DNA from: an uncultured Planctomycetota bacterium
GTDB lineage: Bacteria > Planctomycetota > Planctomycetia > Gemmatales > Gemmataceae
Reading direction: 5' to 3'
NCBI GenBank assembly: GCA_963849325.1
Contig: CAWKHF010000002.1
Span: forward strand, 384,001-448,000
DNA length: 64,000 nucleotides
Below, one piece after another: positions 55,069-63,368 of the stretch. The notes beneath the pieces were generated by a model, which ran no database searches, was not told the DNA's origin, and worked only from the letters and a program-made list of their open reading frames with translations. A program made the translations under genes and the position numbers. Each line of letters begins with the position of its first letter. Within the stretch, counting starts at the first letter, position 1.

Positions 55069-55824
55069 CTATCTGTCCAGAAGGGAGAGGACCGAGCTGA
55101 GGGCCAGCAGTTGCTTGGCCGCCCCGCGCGTCTGTCCGGCCAAACGCCACAACTCCGCCAGGAGCGCGGGATGCCGGAACACGGCCCCCGCCAATCGCAC
55201 GGGCGAAACGCGGCCCCGGCGCAGCAGGTCCACCAGATGAGGTGACAATGACGTGTTCAGGTCATCCGAGATGACGCGCACGCAGGCGAAGGGAATGCCG
55301 TGTTCGTGGCACAGGTGGGCGACGACGGCGGTTTCCATGTCCACGGCGAGCGCCTGATACTCCCATCCGAGCCGCTGCTTCCACTGTGGATCGCCGATCA
55401 ATTCTGACGCGGTCAACAAGCGGCCGCTGCTGAACGAGGGGCCGTCAGCGAAAGCCGCTGCCGGAGCAACAGGCCAGCAATTCCCGCGTTGATCGAGGAT
55501 TTCCGTCGCCAGGATGAGGTCGCCGACACGCTGTTCCGGCCGTAACGCTCCCGAGAAGCCAGCAGACAAAACCAGGCGAGGACGATACGGAACGTCGCCG
55601 AAGCGTGGCGTCGCGAGACACCAGCGCAGGGCGTTCTCCATCGCCCGTGCCCCGAGTCCGGTCTCCAGCATCAACACCGTCTGGGATGGGGGACCGCGAA
55701 ACTCGGCGCGGCAGGGCGCGCCGGAGAAAGATTGCTGATAGGGGTAGGCGCGCCGGAAGTACATCGACTCCCGGCGCAAGGCGAAGACGAGACAAGGATC
55801 GGTAATCGCGCTGTCCGCGGTCAT
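55069..55824 (-). CDS. hpnG: Hopanoid-associated nucleoside phosphorylase (HpnG-like)
   Basis: ETGLG, SAGFSGAL, AVDMETA, CVRVISD; TGATG-coupled to hpnH. Confidence 0.75.
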   Translation of the reverse strand: MTADSAITDPCLVFALRRESMYFRRAYPYQQSFSGAPCRAEFRGPPSQTVLMLETGLGARAMENALRWCLATPRFGDVPYRPRLVLSAGFSGALRPEQRVGDLILATEILDQRGNCWPVAPAAAFADGPSFSSGRLLTASELIGDPQWKQRLGWEYQALAVDMETAVVAHLCHEHGIPFACVRVISDDLNTSLSPHLVDLLRRGRVSPVRLAGAVFRHPALLAELWRLAGQTRGAAKQLLALSSVLSLLDR

Positions 55825-56846
55825 CAGGTCAGTTGCCACATCAGCATTTTGAGGCTGTCGGCCAACTTCGCGTTGACGCCGAGAGCGGCGGAGGTCTCGA
55901 AGCCGCAGTGCATCATGCAGTGCTCGCAGCGCGGATCCTTGCCGTGGCCGTACTTCTCCCAGTTGGTGTTCTCCATCAGGTCGGCGAAGCTGTCGTGGTG
56001 CTCGTCGGTGATGAGATAGCACGGCCCCTTCCAGCCCTTGACGTTCCGCGTCGGATTGCCCCAGGCCGTGCAGCTCAGCTCGCGTTTGCCGCTGAGAAAC
56101 TCCAGGTAGATCGGCGAAGACATCATGCGGTACTTGACGAGCAGCTTTTCGGCCTCCTGGAACTTGGCGCGGATGTCGTCGCGCGTCAGGAAAATCTCGG
56201 CCGCGCCCTTGGGGTTGGTCTTCTGGACCGCCGTGTAGCCGTAGGCCGGCGACAGCATGAAGCCATCGACGCTTCAGCGACTTCAGGTAGGCGAACAGCT
56301 GGTCGATCTCGTCGAGGTTGGTTTCCTTGTAGATGGTCGTGTTGGTGCAGACCAGGAAGCCGGCCTTCTTGGCGGCGACGATGCCCTCGACGGCGGCCTG
56401 GAAAACGCCCGGACGCTCGACGGCCAGGTCGTGCGTCTGCTCCAGGCCGTCGAGGTGGACGTTGAAGAAGAAGCGGCTGGTCGGCCGAAACTCGTGCAGC
56501 CGCTTGCGGATGAACATGCCGTTGGTGCAGAGGTAAATGTGCTTGCGCCGGCGGAGGATGCCGCGCACCAGGGCGCCGATCTCCGGGTAGATCATCGGCT
56601 CGCCGCCGCAGATGCTGACGATGGGCGCGCCGGCCTCATCGACCGCTGCAAGGCACTCGCGCGACGGTCAGTTTTTCCTTGATCGTCTGCGAGTATTCGC
56701 GGATGCGGCCGCAGCCGGTGCAGGTCAGGTTGCAGGCGTGCAGCGGCTCGAGCATCAGCACCAGGGGATAGCGCTTCGCGCCGCGACAGCTTCTTGCGGG
56801 CCATGTAGCCCACCATGGTCGTCGTCAGACTCAGCGGGAAACGCAT
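55824..56846 (-). CDS. hpnH: Adenosyl-hopene transferase, radical SAM; frameshifted
   Basis: MLEPLHACNLTCTGCGRI (CxxxCxxC), GGEP, YLCTNG, CTAWGNPTRN, PCYL, DPRCEHCMMHCGFE. Confidence 0.9.
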
Positions 56847-56870
56847 GGACAAAACCTCCGAACGGATCGC

Positions 56871-56977
56871 AACCGTCAAGACGCCAAGCAAAGACGGAGG
56901 ATCAAGTGTAGTACGAGGGGGATGAGAGATTCCGTAGCTCTCTTTCTTCTCTTGGCGTCCTTGGCGTCTTGGCGGTT
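56871..56977. repeat. Imperfect inverted repeat (AACCGCCAAGACGCCAAG type) between shc and hpnH
   Basis: aaccgtcaagacgccaag ... cttggcgtccttggcgtcttggcggtt. Confidence 0.7.
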
Positions 56978-58927
56978 CGATCATAGCGAGCCAGGGCCAT
57001 GAGCGGGAAGTACAGGCGGTAAAGGTGATATTTCAGGTAGAAGACCTTGGGGAAGCCGGTGCCGGTGAACGGTCTTCGCGCCAGTTGCCGTCCTCGTCCT
57101 GCGTGGTCAGTAGGTAATCGATGCCACCGCGGACCGCGTCGCTGTCGTGCCTCGCCGGCGGCCATCAGGGCGAGCAGCGCCCAGGCGGTCTGCGACGCCG
57201 TCGGCGTCCCCTGTGCCGGCCAGCGTGGGGTCGTCGTAGCTGCGGCAGGTTTCGCCCCAGCCGCCGCCGGCTGCTGCACTTGCTCGCAGCCAGGCCACGG
57301 CGCGGCGCACCATCGGGTCTTGCATGTCGAAGCCGATGCTGCGCAGGCCGCACAGCACCTGCCAGGTGCCGTAGATGTAATTGACGCCCCAGCGGCCGAT
57401 CCAGCAGCCGGACTCCTCCTGCGTTTTCCGCAGAAAGACGAGGGCGCGGCGCACCTGCGGATGATCGCATGCCGAAGCCGTAATGGCCCAGCGCTTCCAG
57501 GACGCGGGCGGTGATGTCGGGACAGCTCGGGTCGAGCATGGCGTTGTGGTCGGCGAACGGCACGTGCGTCAGGACTTCGCGGTTGATGTCGCGGTCGAAG
57601 GCCGCCCAGCCGCCGTCGCGGTTCTGCATGCCCAACAGCCAGCGCAGGCCGCGCTCGGCGGCCGGGCCGGCCGTCGGTCGTGTTCGCCTGCCCCGTCTTC
57701 GCCAGCGCCATCAGCACCATCGCCGTGTCGTCGGTGTCGGGGTAGAAGGCGTTGCGGTACTCGAAGAACCAGCCGCCCGGCTCCAGTGCCGGGTTGGTCA
57801 GGCTCCAGTCGCCCTGCTGACGCACTTCGCTTGGCAAGCAGCCAGCGGGCGGCCTGCTGGATGGCGGGGTGCTCGCGCGGACAGCCCAGCATCGGCCAGG
57901 GCGTTGAGGCTCAGGGCCGTGTCCCACACCGGCGAGAAGCACGGCTGCAAGCGCAGCGTGTCGTCTTCCTCGATCATCAGGTCTTCGAGCTGCTTCAGGG
58001 CCCAGCGCATCTCGGGAGCATCGTCGGGGACGCCCAGGCAGCGCAGGGCGACGACGGTGTAGATCATCGGCGGGAAGATGGCGCCGAGGCCGTCGCTGTC
58101 GTCGAGGTGCTCGCGCATCCAGGCGGCGGCTCGGCGGAGGGCGAGGCGACGAATCGGCCCCAGCCACGGCTCGACCTTCTTGTAGAGGCCGTCGACGCCG
58201 AGGAAGAAGTTGGTCCAGCTCAGCCAGCGCCGCGCGGGCTGCGCCGGCCAGAGCGAGCGTCTGCGGCGGCCGCAGGAACAGTTCGCGATGCCTTTTTCGG
58301 CGGGCAGTTGCCGCACCGGCTTGCACGCCGAGAAGATGCTGAGCGGCACGACGATGGTGCGCGTCCAGCTCGACATGGCGTAGAGGTTGACGTAGACCCA
58401 GCGCGGCAGCAGCACCATCTCCGGCGGCACCGAGGCGCAGTTGCCGTAGGGGAACTGGCCCAGCAGGGCGAGGTAGAACTTCGTGAAGCTGTTGCAGCCG
58501 GCGGCGCCGCCGAGGGCGCGGATGACCTGCGCGGGCCCGACGCATGTACGGCGCGTCGGGGTCGTGGCCGGTCAGCTTGAGGGCGAAGTAGGCCTTGACC
58601 GAGACGCTCAGGTCGGCCGGGCCGCCGGGGTAGTTGCTCCAGCCGCCCTCCGCCATCTGCTGCCGTAGGACGTAGCGGGCGGCCTTGCGGCAGACCTCCG
58701 CTGTCCTCGCGGCCGAGGAAGGCCATGAGCAGGACGTATTCGGATTCGAGGATGGTGTCGCCCTGCAGCTCGCCGACCCAGTGGCCGTCGTCCTGCTGCT
58801 GGTCCAGCAGGCAGCGGCGAGCGGCGTCGATGCCGCGACGCAGAGGAGAGGAGGGGGCGGAATCGTGGCGGCGTCCGGCATCCGGCCGTCGCGGCATCGG
58901 CCGCGTCTGCGACTGTGAGCCTTTCAC
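56902..58927 (-). CDS. shc: Squalene-hopene cyclase, multiple frameshifts (ends approximate)
   Basis: QQDDGHWVGELQGD, KAYFALKL, SPVWDT, YPDTDDT (DxDD), MQNRDGGWAAFD, WGVNYIYGT, FTGTGFPKVFYLKYHLY. Confidence 0.92.
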
Positions 58928-59092
58928 GGGAATCCTTTCCGCTTCCTTCGACTATTCTCCCTCGACCCGGAGGGTCCGCGTAATGTACCCGCTCGCCGCG
59001 AAACGCCGCAAGATGAACTCGCCGCTCTTGCCGATGCCTGTTCTGGTCCCCACGACGCGCCGGCTGATACAATCGGGGACGGGAGGTCCATC

Positions 59093-59436
59093 GTGAACGC
59101 ATCCGCATCCGCAAGCACATTGACTCGGACACGCCGTATCTGCCGGAACTCCGGCCACTGATCGGCAAGACCGTTGAGATCATCGTTCTCGATGAAACGG
59201 TCGGCCCAGAAGGCAAGCAGTTGGAGACGGAAGAAACCTTCTTTGGTCTGGCCCCGCCGCCGCCGACGCCGGAAGAGCAAACGGCGTACTTGGCGAAGTT
59301 CCGCGCCATGCGCGACAATCCGGCCTATACGAAACTATGGCCTTACCTTGATCTGCTCCTGACGGGGCAACTCGATATCGACGTAGACGAGGTAGTTCAA
59401 GCCCGTGGAATGACCGCCCATGATTCTGACCGATAG
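59093..59436 (+). CDS. Antitoxin-like protein (1-nt frameshift right after the GTG start)
   Basis: GGAGG, GTG AAC GC then IRIRKHIDSDTPYLPELRPLIGKTVEIIVLDE, in frame with ORF 59221..59436; overlaps a PIN-like start. Confidence 0.65.
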
Positions 59437-59449
59437 TTCCATCCTGATC
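59420..59449 (+). pseudogene. PIN/VapC toxin stub
   Basis: MILTDSSILI, then similarity stops. Confidence 0.6.
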
Positions 59450-59450
59450 C

Positions 59451-59546
59451 GTCAGATTGGACGACCAGGACCGGGAAGGGTTTCGTCGTTTCCAAGTTGG
59501 AATTGGGGGACAATGCCAGGAGAACTTCTCCGCGTTCATACGTCAT
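59451..59546 (-). pseudogene. MazF/PemK toxin N-terminal fragment
   Basis: Manual translation MTYERGEVLLALSPNSNLETTKPFPVLVVQSD matches the PemK pattern RGDVxLxxFP..K.RPxLVVQxD. Confidence 0.7.
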
Positions 59547-59766
59547 TGTAAACATCCATTTCCGGTCGATCCCAGTCCTCCGCAGCCGCTCCCCAGCGCG
59601 ACCGTAGTTCCGCAGTCTCCGCCTCGTCGATGCCGTGCGCCCGCAAGTCGATGCTTCCTTCGATGGGAAGGAACGTCACCACGACACGCGCCTCTTTCAC
59701 GTCCGGCGGCGTTTCCAACAGTTCGATTTTGCCGTGCCGATAAATGCCCTCAACCGCTTTCAGCAT
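59536..59766 (-). CDS. Antitoxin-like protein (76 aa)
   Basis: GGAGG RBS; MLKAVEGIYRHGKIELLETP...VVVTFL and acidic tail AEDWDRPEMDVYND; overlaps the MazF-like start. Confidence 0.75.
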   Translation of the reverse strand: MLKAVEGIYRHGKIELLETPPDVKEARVVVTFLPIEGSIDLRAHGIDEAETAELRSRWGAAAEDWDRPEMDVYNDV

Positions 59767-60079
59767 GTACGTTTCCTCCAGCAAAGTTTGAGACCCCTTG
59801 TGCGGGATCGTTTGCGTTCTACTGATCGGTGCGCAAAGGACGCTGGGCTGGAATTGTGGACCTAAGATGCGCATTTCGCCGCGATGGCCGCCCTATTGTC
59901 CGGCTTGAGGCTGTTTCACGAGCCGCCGTGAGGAAGGCTTCGAGATACGAGGGCAAGGGAAGGCGCTAAGAACCTTTTTGCATAGCAAAAGTATTAAAAT
60001 GGTTCCTGATATCTTTTTTCCCCCAAATGCCGCGATCTCTGCCAGTCACAACCGCGATTGGTCATCGGACATGCATCGC

Positions 60080-63000
60080 TTACCCCTTCTTTCTCCCCTT
60101 CTTCGAGCCGATCTCGTTGCCGAAGAGGTCCGTGGGGATGGCGTTGCCGAACAGGTCTGCAGGCCGATCCTTCACCGACTTCTCTGGGGGCGACAGCGCT
60201 TCCGCCTTCTCCTCGTCGGTCAGCTTCTGGGATTCTGGAGCCGGTTTCATCGGCCGACCAAGCACCTGATAGGCCCGCGCCGTCGCCATCCGGCCACGCC
60301 GCGTCCGCACGATGAATTGCTCCCGCAGCAGGTACGGCTCGATCTCGTCGCTGAGGGTATCAACCGGCAGGCTCATGCTGGCCGCCAGGGATTCGACACC
60401 GACCGGCCCGCCGCCGTGTACGCCGACCAGTATTTCCAGATAACGGCGGTCCTGTTTATCCAGTCCATCGCGATCGACCTCGGCCATGTCCAGGGCGGCG
60501 CGGGCGATGTCGAAGGTGATGCGGCCATCGTCCTCGCTGGCGGCAAAGCTCCGCGCCCACCACAGCCGGGCGTTGGCGAGGCGCGGCGTGCCGCGACTGC
60601 GCCGCGCCAGCTCAAGGGCCGCATCGTCGGTGATCGAGGTTTGCAGCTTGCAGGCATTGATGCGCACGATCTCGGCCAACTCCTCAACGGTGTAATACTC
60701 AAGGTGCTCGTGCATCTTGAAGCGATCGCGCAGCGGTCCAGACATCATTCCGCTGCGGGTGGTCGCCCCGATCAGCGTGAACGGTTTCAGACGCAGGTTG
60801 ATTGTCCGCGCATTCATGCCTTCGCCGAGTACAATATCGAAGCGGAAATCCTTCATTGCTGGATAGATCAACTCCTCGACAAGACGCGGCATCCGGTGGA
60901 TTTCGTCGATGAACAGCACCGAGCCTTCCTCGACGTTGGTGAGAAAGGTCAACAGATCGGCCGGCTTAGTTAGCGCCGAGCCGCTGGTCATTTGGATCGA
61001 CGTGCCCAGTTCGTTGGCCAGTGCGTTAGCGAAGGTGGTCTTGCCCATTCCCGGCGGGCCGTCGAACAAGATGTGCGATAGCGGCTCCTTGAGTTTTTTA
61101 CAGGCGTTCAGGACGATGCTCAGGCGCTGGACGATCGCTTGTTGGCCGATGATTTCGCGCAGCCATCGCGGCCGCAGCGACGCATCGCGCCGCCGCGATT
61201 CCTCGTCGCCGCCAGATTGCACGATGGCTTGAGGTGCCGTGTAGGAGCCTCGCACGTCTTCCACCTGTTTGAGAGATTCAACCCAGGAAGGGATAGTGCC
61301 GATCGAGTACTTCCGAATTATCGACTGAGCTTCCTGTTTAAGAGATTCAACCACGGAAGGGATGGGGGCGGCAGGGGCCGGTAGCACTGCTGGGGCGGGG
61401 CTGGGAGCCGCAGCGGGGAACAAGCCCTTGACGGAGTTGGCCGGCACCCATTCCAACATGCCGTACTGCCAGACAAAATCGGTCGGTTTCAACTGTCCGG
61501 AAGCCGCCAGTTGCTTGAGTTGAGTGGCCGTGATGGGCGCGATGGCTTGCTGGCCGTTGAGCGTGTAATGCCATTCATTCGCCGCCTTGGCGGAGACGGG
61601 GGGAAGGACGGCCGAATCGCCGAGGCTCTTGCCGGAAGGACTTCTATAAGGGGTTGCTAGATAATGCCAAGGGGGCACGACGGCCGAATCGCCGAGAGTC
61701 TTGCCGGCGGGGGGGAACAATCCTTTGATGGCGCCAGCGGGTACCCATTCGACCATGCCTTCCTGCCAAACGAGGTCGGTCGGCTTCAGCTGCCCGGAGG
61801 CCGCCAATTGCTTGAGTTGGGTGGCGCTGATGGGCGAAGCGGCGGGTTGGCCGTGGATCGTATAATGCCATTCATTCCGCATCAGGTCGGGCAGTGCAAG
61901 GCCGGAGGGAATGGCCTGATCGACCTGGAGGCCGGGTGCTGCTTGTATTTCGCTAATCCGCCGTGCCAACTCAGCCGCGTCTGTCGGGCGTTTTTCCGCT
62001 CGTGATGCCAGGCAGGATGCCAGTAAAGCGAGAAAGTCTTCACTCACTCCGCGTGAACGTACTTCATCCTGCCAATCAGCCGGCAAAGACACACTATTCA
62101 TGTCGCCGGTGAGGAGTTGATACCAGATGACACCGAGGGCGTGGACATCGTCGCGCGGGTCTGGCGGCTCCCCGTCCTTTTGTTGCGGTGAGGCGTAAAA
62201 GGGCGTGTGGGCACCTCGCAACACCGTCGGAAGCAAGTTACAGCCCACACGACTACGTTTCGCCGCCGCCAGCGCCTGACCAGCTACGACACCGCCGATG
62301 CCGAAGTCAGCTACGCGGGGAGCGTACCCTCCCTTATCGGTTCGGTTCAGGAGGATGTTCGCTGGCTTGAGATCACGATGCACGATGGGCGGATTAAGCT
62401 TGTGTGCATACGCTACAATCTCCGCTAGTCTGTATACCAATTTTGTAGCTTTTTCGACCGTGCATGCTGAAGGCGAGCGGTGCCATTGGGCGATCACTTT
62501 AGTCAAATCACCCCCAGCCACGTACTCGTACTCCAGACAGGGCGTCTCGGCGTTGAGATAGGTGTGCAAGAGTTTCACGATGCCCAGATGTTTCCCTTCG
62601 CACATGACACGGCCCAGCAAGGCTGCCTCGTTGCGGAGCACTTTGGCCGCCGTCGCATCGGTGCAGAACTTGAGAGCTGCTACCGTGTGGGGAAGGTGGG
62701 GGTTGCATGCCATCCAGACTTCCCCGAAGCCACCTACGCCGAGCAGTTCCTGTAACTCCCAATCTCCGATACCGGGCGGACGGTCTCCGGGCCGAAACCG
62801 GGGCATCTTACTGGGAAGGAGGAGGAGTAGGTCTTCGGCGCGTTGCAAGGAAAGTTCAGAAGAGAGCGATCGTCCACTCGAATCTCCGCGGCAGCGCTGG
62901 GACTGACGGATGGCGTTCGGTACGAGAGCTACATAGTCCGCTACCGCTTGGCAGACAGTCTCCAGATGTCCAGCGCCTTCCACCTGCGCAGCCAATTTGG

Positions 63001-63217
63001 CGTAGCCCTTTGTTTCGGCGACCGACAGTCGGGCTACCGCTTGCAGCTCCGCTCGCAATTGATCTTCTGGCCGGCCTCTGTTCCACCACTTCCAAACGTC
63101 TTTCGCCATGTCTGGCAAGACATCGACAGCAAAATCCCCTAATACGCCGCCTCCGGCGATGTTCAAGGCGGCTCTGGCAATGAACCGCAAGAGGGCGGGC
63201 GGCGTGTGCATGGCCAT
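60080..63217 (-). CDS. Fusion protein: N-terminal helical domain, Ser/Thr kinase, two GYF_2 (DUF4339)-like domains, full-length RuvB-like ATPase
   Basis: Kinase LGVGGFGEVW, ALKF, HRDLKPAN, DFG, YASPQQ, DVHALG; two WHY..GQ...QLKQLAASGQLKPTD.VW..GM.EWVPA units; RuvB SLRP, GPPGMGKTT, FIDEIHR, GATTR, PLRDRF, RGTPR, IEPYLL. Confidence 0.9.
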   Translation of the reverse strand: MAMHTPPALLRFIARAALNIAGGGVLGDFAVDVLPDMAKDVWKWWNRGRPEDQLRAELQAVARLSVAETKGYAKLAAQVEGAGHLETVCQAVADYVALVPNAIRQSQRCRGDSSGRSLSSELSLQRAEDLLLLLPSKMPRFRPGDRPPGIGDWELQELLGVGGFGEVWMACNPHLPHTVAALKFCTDATAAKVLRNEAALLGRVMCEGKHLGIVKLLHTYLNAETPCLEYEYVAGGDLTKVIAQWHRSPSACTVEKATKLVYRLAEIVAYAHKLNPPIVHRDLKPANILLNRTDKGGYAPRVADFGIGGVVAGQALAAAKRSRVGCNLLPTVLRGAHTPFYASPQQKDGEPPDPRDDVHALGVIWYQLLTGDMNSVSLPADWQDEVRSRGVSEDFLALLASCLASRAEKRPTDAAELARRISEIQAAPGLQVDQAIPSGLALPDLMRNEWHYTIHGQPAASPISATQLKQLAASGQLKPTDLVWQEGMVEWVPAGAIKGLFPPAGKTLGDSAVVPPWHYLATPYRSPSGKSLGDSAVLPPVSAKAANEWHYTLNGQQAIAPITATQLKQLAASGQLKPTDFVWQYGMLEWVPANSVKGLFPAAAPSPAPAVLPAPAAPIPSVVESLKQEAQSIIRKYSIGTIPSWVESLKQVEDVRGSYTAPQAIVQSGGDEESRRRDASLRPRWLREIIGQQAIVQRLSIVLNACKKLKEPLSHILFDGPPGMGKTTFANALANELGTSIQMTSGSALTKPADLLTFLTNVEEGSVLFIDEIHRMPRLVEELIYPAMKDFRFDIVLGEGMNARTINLRLKPFTLIGATTRSGMMSGPLRDRFKMHEHLEYYTVEELAEIVRINACKLQTSITDDAALELARRSRGTPRLANARLWWARSFAASEDDGRITFDIARAALDMAEVDRDGLDKQDRRYLEILVGVHGGGPVGVESLAASMSLPVDTLSDEIEPYLLREQFIVRTRRGRMATARAYQVLGRPMKPAPESQKLTDEEKAEALSPPEKSVKDRPADLFGNAIPTDLFGNEIGSKKGRKKG

Positions 63218-63368
63218 TCCACTCCGGCGAATTCAGGCGAATCGAGGTGTGGGTTATTGTCTGCCGAGCGGAGGTCCGTTTCAACCAAAAATATCTCGCC
63301 AAGGTTTTGGGTGCCACGCCTCCATTCCTCCATTTGGCTTGCTCTTCGATTGTGTCAGCAAAGACAAC

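Follow-up and report, generated by a model that had tools for sequence, protein, structure and literature searches.

Glu128, Asp129 and Arg171 (S. thermophilus numbering) take part in hydrolysis by the RuvB motor, and mutation at the Glu128 site causes a growth defect (Wald et al. 2022, PMC9477746). Set against the motor as described there (PDB 7PBL), the RuvB at the end of the protein reported here aligns in its three domains, Walker A/B, Arg21, Arg171, Arg218, presensor-1 hairpin and winged helix; it differs in standing behind a kinase, in being a second copy outside the ruv operon, in having Lys in place of Glu128, and in the loss of its native start and end. Planctomycete kinases shuffle freely (105 accessory domains and 307 architectures; PMC11032199), and the multidomain Ser/Thr kinases described from Gemmataceae and Planctomycetota also join a Hanks-type kinase to a variable C-terminus (TPR, WD40, FGE-sulfatase and others; PMC11032199, PMC8567305). 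What differs here is that a complete housekeeping enzyme forms the accessory part; RuvB and GYF are absent from the main text and one supplement of PMC11032199.

Inactive host modules have been proposed as decoys in conflict systems of other kinds found in planctomycetes (PMC7159879). The sequence here would fit the kind of module described for the MoxR-vWA/GTPase systems (Kaur et al. 2020, PMC7159879), an inactive copy of an enzyme that is active in the same cell; unlike those systems, it has no MoxR, vWA or GTPase core adjoining, the carrier being a stand-alone kinase, and RuvB is mentioned nowhere in the text or two supplements of that paper. Plant NLRs with integrated decoy domains likewise mount a swappable copy of a host protein on a signalling chassis; the likeness is an analogy only, and the fusion, unlike the NLRs, is without an NB-ARC or STAND core. 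Profiles of the defence kinases PD-T4-6, MADS6 and BREX PglW match the fusion in its kinase domain only, and their partner genes are absent here. Stk2 is a defence kinase grouped with these for comparison. The literature searched, together with two supplement sets, yielded no kinase-RuvB fusion and no pseudo-RuvB domain (the bioRxiv supplements and most subscription papers lay outside its scope).

A kinase joined to a whole RuvB

The features of the locus are given in the coordinates of the window, that is, of the whole stretch of 64,000 nucleotides that was analysed:

59020..63368, no strand: insert of about 4.35 kb, GC 0.56-0.62, between epimerase and cyclase genes
59397..59766, minus strand: small gene (76 aa) and, after it, 49 aa of a PemK-like remnant (below the Pfam cut-off at E 0.046), in the same insert as the fusion
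60080..63217, minus strand: whole fusion gene, an open reading frame of 1045 aa (P0001)
62798..63217, minus strand: N-terminal all-helical domain, about aa 1-140, common to the kinase family, without Pfam family or fold match
61976..62758, minus strand: Hanks-type Ser/Thr kinase, aa 154-414 (Pfam and family alignment)
61718..61870, minus strand: GYF_2 repeat 1, aa 450-500 (Pfam)
61421..61573, minus strand: GYF_2 repeat 2, about aa 549-599 (Pfam)
61252..61420, minus strand: Pro-rich linker with a duplicated IPSxVESLKQ unit (61363-61333, 61294-61264), a motif also present in P0003 and P0243
60248..61251, minus strand: captured ruvB (Pfam, NCBIfam, alignment)
60851..60853, minus strand: codon 789, AAG (Lys), replacing Glu128, the trans-acting residue of the RuvB signature motif (alignment)
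60083..60247, minus strand: new 55-aa tail with two DLF motifs, in place of the native QPGLFD end (sequence comparison)

The first-pass annotation had read a single 1045-aa kinase-GYF_2-GYF_2-RuvB frame with intact kinase motifs and a complete RuvB, and no ruvA or ruvC nearby. The frame and its coordinates are right: one open frame (63217-60080, minus strand) runs from an unnamed helical domain through a Ser/Thr kinase and a pair of GYF_2 domains to a whole RuvB. Pfam places Pkinase at aa 154-414 (E 2e-25), GYF_2 over two stretches (the best, aa 450-500, at E 5e-27), RuvB_N at 681-839, the RuvB lid at 842-915 and RuvB_C at 918-986, and both NCBIfam ruvB models score above cut-off (418.9 vs 282; 377.5 vs 299). 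The kinase is as claimed: Gly loop, Lys-Glu pair, HRDxKxxN, DFG and helix-F Asp are all there, and residues K183, E197, H280, D282, K284, N287, D304, G306 and D357 are invariant across 106 aligned family members. It is modelled at pLDDT 89, and by its motifs it is of Hanks type, with a predicted phosphotransfer activity. ruvC and ruvA do lie elsewhere, in a ruvC-ruvA-ruvB operon on contig C5 of the same genome. The claim for RuvB held in part: the copy is full length (AAA+ large domain, lid and winged helix all present) and its motifs align, yet it is not intact, because the trans-acting Glu128 is Lys789, which had been overlooked.

Ahead of the kinase, about 140 aa form a conserved helical domain that had gone unremarked. 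It has no Pfam match, whether to an effector-associated (EAD or death-like) adaptor domain such as the MoxR-vWA/GTPase systems use or to any other family; Foldseek against the PDB and viral sets gave 0 matches at E<=0.001, the VIA fold search a best Z of 4.8, and the ESM Atlas nothing usable (the N-terminal domain of P0003 leads there to unnamed clusters). For a pair of front modules (helical domain with kinase), complex prediction scored 0.21, short of the 0.42 mark, and is not used as evidence.

The fusion is solitary, with a housekeeping gene to either side: an epimerase gene, which we take to be hpnA-like, and a cyclase gene, presumably for squalene-hopene cyclase, the two being only 138 nt apart in the genus-mate G002. 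The suggestion of a defence module was not borne out: no defence genes flank the fusion (its surroundings are the epimerase, small ORFs and the cyclase), PADLOC matches are generic kinase matches confined to the kinase part, and a literature search found no phage protein directed at RuvB. Defence-kinase NCBIfam scores are far below cut-off (MAD6 74.9 bits vs 460, PglW 52.1 vs 990). One sigma70-like site lies upstream, at 63284-63256; such sites are about as frequent as chance predicts (2 found vs 1.4 expected).

The junction, its relatives and its rarity

Is the junction genuine? Its being false had been set beforehand as a possible refutation, and the assembly does contain indel errors, one of them in the C5 ruvB; several long RuvB proteins in the databases resemble read-throughs of just this kind. 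An assembly chimera, or two genes joined by sequencing error, is nonetheless refuted, and almost certainly wrong, because P0243, an independent kinase-GYF-RuvB protein, and P0003, in which GYF-GYF-RuvB follows another front domain, share linker and junction with P0001, and because contigs of runs X1 and X3, from two other studies, continue from RuvB into the linker. Also against it, the fused ruvB shares no more than 83.5% identity with the C5 gene, and where the native ATG stood it has ACG (at 61240); this copy, with ruvCAB on C5, is not the genome's only ruvB read from an internal start, a further possibility raised at the outset. Homologues under constraint had been looked for as well: relatives exist, and the RuvB part evolves slower than neutral (see below). 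The GYF-linker-RuvB cassette recurs with a different front domain, and close relatives of the gene are present in runs from 4/4 studies. In contigs of other runs seven indels are listed within the ORF, and each of them, alone or together with a second, leaves the frame intact; the 55-aa tail is found in contigs of runs X3 and X4 (in X3 with 3- and 12-nt deletions). The frame of P0243 is broken in Walker A, through error or decay.

The fusion occurs very seldom. A search of 252 family genomes lists 150 matches, with 79 more beyond the listing, and of those listed G000 alone covers the GYF-linker part; a DNA pattern of the linker gave 0 matches in genome contigs and 15 in metagenome contigs, of which 0/15 were related by tblastn; and the fusion was absent among 39 other genomes with at least two RuvB_C matches, re-searched out of 401 genomes of the class. 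Sorted by identity and frame length, the extra RuvB_C matches in those 39 are a distant stand-alone RuvB-like family (26-36%) or, in G553, redundant strain contigs; G444 and G466 gave one match each. Several candidates were set aside: nine long open frames that span ruvB in genomes of the family (9/9 ordinary genes with their own Met), a longer match in G233 that is the canonical operon, and P0010, a single-member RuvB-TPR-kinase with RuvB first and motifs intact, which was read as a read-through of neighbours and left uncounted.

Damage and constraint in the captured RuvB

The captured RuvB came in its entirety from a congeneric ruvB: the copy begins 11-14 nt upstream of the native start, runs to near the native end, and is 85% identical in its product to the host RuvB. 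Transfer from a G005-like donor is only suggested, because the AU test does not reject descent from the host's own ruvB (p=0.115). The copy keeps Walker A/B, Arg finger, sensor 2, RuvA-binding hairpin and wing arginines. Its cis ATP pocket is complete (R684, K726, T727, D771, E772 and R879, corresponding to Arg21, Walker A Lys/Thr, Walker B Asp/Glu and sensor-2 Arg), and D790 and R832 (Asp129, Arg171) are retained; Lys789 stands at the position that is Glu in 240/241 other RuvB sequences, and changes fall at 9/145 near-invariant columns. A canonical RuvB has all three trans-acting residues and is the cell's motor, a stand-alone gene working with ruvA; the fused copy has Lys at the first of the three, has lost its ATG and shares its genome with ruvCAB. 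To judge from its residues, it is probably disabled, or hydrolysis-crippled.

The damage is repeated elsewhere. The four fused RuvBs (P0001, P0003, P0122 of G232, and P0124) have each lost at least one triad residue, 7/12 sites in all (permutation P=4e-4; Glu128 and the triad were chosen as test sites after the change had been seen in two copies), and six columns are changed in at least three of the four (P=6e-4). Cis sites changed no more than background (4/25, P=0.65), and invariant columns changed less than variable ones in every fused copy (binomial P 0.02 to 2e-7), these two tests covering five copies with P0254, which was included after its motif was seen and is not in the triad and column tests; P0261 was excluded from the canonical set in all four. 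Changes concentrate at a subunit contact face (24/52 sites). The fused copies of G000 and G232 have separate origins (AU p=4e-5, tested without P0124). Thus fused copies of at least two origins have lost the same neighbour-activating face, with ATP pocket and DNA wing mostly kept. The Glu-to-Lys change may merely detoxify a spare copy, because L089, a decayed tandem ruvB beside an intact one, has it too; a search for the pattern gave two matches in the genome collection (L089, and L088, taken as the G232 locus) and 0 in viral contigs.

dN/dS is 0.23 on the fused-RuvB branch vs 0.035 on the canonical branch (about 7 times; Fisher p=7e-5). The fused part evolves slower than neutral, but 0.23 could be the sum of a long canonical period and a short neutral one.

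A kinase family with an exchangeable C-terminus

The front module defines a family of kinases in which the C-terminal part is exchangeable. Copies of host proteins (RuvB, Hsp70, PilM, ABC ATPase, sigma70/alpha-CTD) occur in 5/130 family kinases scanned: the Hsp70, PilM, sigma70 and alpha-CTD copies of the sister kinases stand at 49-61%, with counterparts in this genome, and one sister kinase carries a worn ABC ATPase. Since the copies of other host proteins in related kinases are worn, copies of this kind may serve as baits or sensors. Our preferred explanation, which we put just short of an even chance, is a cytoplasmic Ser/Thr kinase of modular build, with a captured RuvB, crippled in hydrolysis, occupying its C-terminal slot as bait or sensor. 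The fused RuvB would no longer be a branch-migration motor and would bind what RuvB binds; binding would gather the kinase domains or free them, the GYF domains would recruit proline-rich partners, and the signal would be passed on by phosphorylation. An invader protein aimed at RuvB is a conceivable though unlikely ligand; RuvA on persistent four-way junctions is a candidate of lower probability still. The first-pass annotation had proposed sensor, oligomerisation scaffold or decoy: sensor and decoy gain because the trans-catalytic face has been lost repeatedly, and also from the worn host proteins of the sister kinases, while the scaffold is weakened because the damaged face is a ring-forming one.

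Might the fusion be "merely" tolerated? A spare ruvB could have been inserted in frame after a promiscuous kinase or GYF gene as a by-product of domain shuffling, selection only disabling the trans face and so sparing the host ring, the rest drifting. Its rarity, the frame break of P0243, the same Glu-to-Lys change in decayed L089, the raised dN/dS of RuvB beside a kinase part low in GC3 (0.62, where six relatives have 0.69-0.82) and the free shuffling reported for planctomycete kinases (PMC11032199) give this, the main rival, a substantial minority chance; it remains on balance unlikely, for the RuvB frames of P0003, P0122 and P0124 are still open, with invariant sites spared, after 53 to 131 amino-acid changes, the cassette has survived exchange of its front domain, relatives in the runs of all four studies keep frame through their indels, and GYF repeats 1 and 2 have diverged at dN/dS 0.17. 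If this neutral account is true, the gene is still a clear case of planctomycetes building new multidomain proteins.

It is quite improbable that the fusion is an address label or brake on host RuvAB, its crippled subunit entering host rings by the intact cis face and stalling them, or bringing the kinase to repair proteins, for the good of the cell or of a mobile element that gains from stalled junctions: changes crowd a contact face and may prevent assembly, and a brake has no use for a kinase, although cis pocket, hairpin and wing are retained, identity to the host RuvB is high, and the G232 RuvB-AAA fusion is cargo adjoining integrase and primase-like genes. Arg-finger mutants of RuvB behave as dominant negatives, which counts for such a role. 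A functional second motor, controlled by its own kinase, would agree with the full length, the two NCBIfam scores and the small number of near-invariant columns changed; it is highly improbable when Glu128, a site with a growth defect on mutation (PMC9477746), is Lys, when relatives have lost more of the same face and when no ruvA adjoins.

To return to the bait or sensor kinase, a wider version of it is rather doubtful: Gemmataceae-type "integrated-decoy" kinase receptors, in which a helical-domain-kinase chassis would capture whole host proteins (RuvB, recruited more than once, Hsp70, PilM, sigma70/alpha-CTD, ABC ATPase), disable their catalytic or DNA-reading residues and bait invader proteins with them. 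If true, the baits would list host proteins attacked by phages or rival cells, RuvB included. The family offers a compact test of the 2020 decoy proposal (inactive copies of own enzymes), with one chassis, several host copies and one read-out, and the repeated loss of one RuvB face supplies natural mutants that separate binding from motor action. As to the GYF domains, repeat 2 has 82% nucleotide identity with the GYF domain that a gene of contig C6 encodes.

A single frame from kinase to RuvB

The frame that the first-pass annotation had read as one kinase-GYF_2-GYF_2-RuvB protein is indeed open throughout its 1045 residues (63217-60080, minus strand). By Pfam the kinase occupies residues 154-414, GYF_2 follows in two stretches, and residues 681-986 hold all three RuvB domains; the protein also passes both cut-offs of the NCBIfam ruvB models. 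Alignment shows the catalytic residues of the kinase all retained, and the 140-residue domain in front of it has a confidently predicted fold (pLDDT 89) that fold searches matched to no other. The RuvB had been called complete: this holds for its three domains and fails for the trans-acting Glu128, whose place is taken by Lys789.

Might the join be a chimera of assembly? That is ruled out by two proteins and by junction-spanning contigs, and an artefact of any kind is now exceedingly improbable. P0243, the top match among 1.84 billion representatives, has the same kinase-GYF-linker-RuvB order (kinase 93% identical, start of RuvB 90%); in P0003 (621 aa) a different front domain precedes a pair of GYF domains, a linker with the shared motif, and a RuvB that is 79% identical to that of the fusion. 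Contigs of four public sequencing runs (four studies) cover the kinase region with matches of about 94-97%, and one contig each from runs X1 and X3 extends from RuvB to 61290 and 61293, past 61252, where ruvB homology starts. The six indel rows within the frame, all from X3 (60213, 60218, 61540/61544, 61835/61837), comprise deletions of 3 and of 12 bases and two pairs whose members compensate, with none unpaired. The architecture is real, rare and apparently undescribed: the literature searched yielded no description of a kinase-RuvB fusion. No Pfam family covers the front domain of P0003 (residues 1-110); its Atlas matches, at 0.91-0.92, are to unnamed clusters, and it was not found in the source genome.

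Assembly of the gene and its kin

The fused ruvB is not the sole copy: a separate ruvC-ruvA-ruvB operon lies on C5, one of the 14 contigs of the source genome. Its ruvB (L011, near C5:396196), 83.5% identical in DNA to the fused one, carries a one-base insertion that is most likely an assembly error, as elsewhere in this genome. The closest stand-alone RuvB proteins bearing an organism name are labelled Gemmataceae, and the host is accordingly taken for a planctomycete of this family. Trees place the fused RuvB, together with the RuvB of P0003, within the genus (support 100/99), adjoining the canonical gene of another genome, G005; descent from the host's own ruvB is not rejected (AU p=0.115).

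The native start codon has become ACG (at 61240), and homology to ruvB reaches 11-14 bases further upstream. At the other end, the native QPGLFD (of 86 close RuvBs at full length, 77 end in a Q..LF motif) has given way to a tail of 55 residues that contains two DLF motifs, which may resemble a sliding-clamp motif. A gene on contig C6 has a GYF domain that shares 79-82% identity with the two repeats, and a paralogue of the front module (helical domain plus kinase) on C12 ends in an FGE-sulfatase-like part instead of GYF-RuvB. The gene sits inside an insert of about 4.35 kb whose flanking genes are only 138 bases apart in the genus-mate G002; at the 8 remaining genus loci inspected, the upstream flanking gene is followed by other genes. 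The insert and its neighbourhood hold:

60080-63217, minus strand: the fusion gene
59397-59766, minus strand, same insert: 76-aa gene, then a truncated PemK-like frame
59068-59436, plus strand, same insert: 122-aa frame, no family
55069-58951, minus strand: presumed squalene-hopene cyclase and radical-SAM-like genes, many frameshifts

Over 1388 bases, the cyclase of G002 aligns at 82%.

Kinases account for 138 of the 150 best representative matches, the majority with the same front module; RuvB occurs in one. When 130 family kinases were scanned against Pfam (best five families per protein), at least 22 had an FGE-sulfatase tail, others had TPR, WD40, Sel1, LRR or beta-helix repeats, and at least 5 carried copies of host proteins: RuvB, Hsp70, PilM, ABC ATPase, and sigma70 pieces with alpha-CTD. 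In the Hsp70 copy (57% to its counterpart in the source genome) the Glu of DEPTAAAL is Ser, in the sigma70 copy (54%) TRERVRQ reads ASEQVSQ, and the ABC copy is without a recognisable Walker A, though its best match in the source genome is atypical too; we presume the altered residues to be catalytic or DNA-reading. The sister kinases P0339, P0348, P0350 and P0370 end, between them, in worn copies of Hsp70, ABC ATPase, PilM, and sigma70 pieces with RNA polymerase alpha-CTD. Kinase shuffling in Planctomycetota is already published (PMC11032199, PMC8567305); the passages and one supplement of the former, and the passages of the latter, contain no RuvB fusion.

Loss of the RuvB trans face

Lys789 aligns with Glu128 of PDB 7PBL (S. 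thermophilus numbering). Glu128, Asp129 and Arg171 of one RuvB subunit are described as promoting, in trans, the neighbour's ATP hydrolysis, and mutating Glu128 as causing a growth defect (passages of PMC9477746). Among 241 other RuvB sequences, 240 have Glu at this position and all 241 the Arg finger. G232 carries a second RuvB, in this case fused to a different AAA+ ATPase (P0122), with an integrase adjacent; P0124 is a distant relative of that fusion.

Losses from the trans-acting triad in other fused RuvBs
P0003: Asp129, Arg171
P0122 (G232): Glu128 (again to Lys), Arg171
P0124: Glu128, Arg171

Over the four fused copies 7 of 12 triad sites are altered (P=4e-4 for random placement among near-invariant columns), the triad having been chosen after the change was noticed, and ours and P0003, of one shared origin, counting as two copies. 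The two trans helices are altered at 24 of 52 sites (0 of 100,000 permutations, which take all columns as equally mutable). With an extended RuvB, P0254, added as a fifth copy, columns 789, 823, 828 and 832 are each altered in 4 of 5 (P=3e-5), while ATP-pocket residues acting in cis are altered at the background rate (4/25). For the source-genome and G232 copies, the AU test rejects a single origin (p=4e-5). Judged by its residues, the RuvB copy is probably crippled on one face; this repeated loss of the trans-catalytic face is unexpected.

In G232 (L076:9451-11571, contig C11), as in P0124, RuvB precedes an AAA+ ATPase of the AAA_lid_6 type and a Cys-rich end; the two are 53% identical, RuvB is degenerate in both, and the G232 gene is cargo next to integrase and primase-like genes.

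What the RuvB copy may do

The reading we favour, tentatively and at somewhat under even odds, is that the copy serves as bait or sensor: it keeps its ATP, RuvA and DNA surfaces and has dropped the one that drives the ring, and a ligand, whether an invader protein or RuvA sitting at stalled junctions, would cluster the kinase or set it free. Binding of a proline-rich partner by a bacterial GYF domain (passages of PMC11135422) fits an adaptor role for the GYF domains here. A second working RuvB motor is very improbable; an address label or brake acting on the host RuvAB is unlikely, if less so.

A more serious contender, still the less probable, is a tolerated product of shuffling, its trans face disabled solely to spare the host ring. 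Two observations count against function of the fused RuvB: the frame of P0243 is broken in Walker A, its last 18 residues matching the fusion's own DNA translated in the shifted frame; and a decayed tandem ruvB adjoining an intact one (L089) has the same Glu-to-Lys, this locus having been found by searching for that very change. As for purifying selection, which the first-pass annotation had asked about, the fused branch (47 silent and 36 replacement changes) has a dN/dS of 0.23, far below neutral (P=1e-9), as against 0.035 on the G005 branch; the same figure would result if the gene had long been a normal ruvB and then, for a short time, evolved neutrally. In each of the five odd copies change is scarcer at invariant than at variable columns, in a test that includes changes on the canonical side. 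At L089 (5203-7398) the decayed ruvB lies directly upstream of the intact one, and its frame continues into a RuvA-like C-terminus.

The fusion is not a canonical RuvB and lies outside all named defence systems. It is likest the inactive host-derived modules that passages of PMC7159879 propose to act as decoys in the conflict systems multicellular bacteria carry; the NTPase cores of those systems are absent here.

Other unusual RuvB-like proteins were met. Many long ones (P0014-P0120) have Pfam PF14890/PF14528 inserts close to Walker A, presumably intein and homing endonuclease. A distant stand-alone family (26-36% identity) occurs in about one class genome in ten, at L075/L078 (G232:C5:561758-565216), G002:C3, G003:C91 and in most of 39 genomes re-searched; the one locus inspected has mobile-element-like genes around it.
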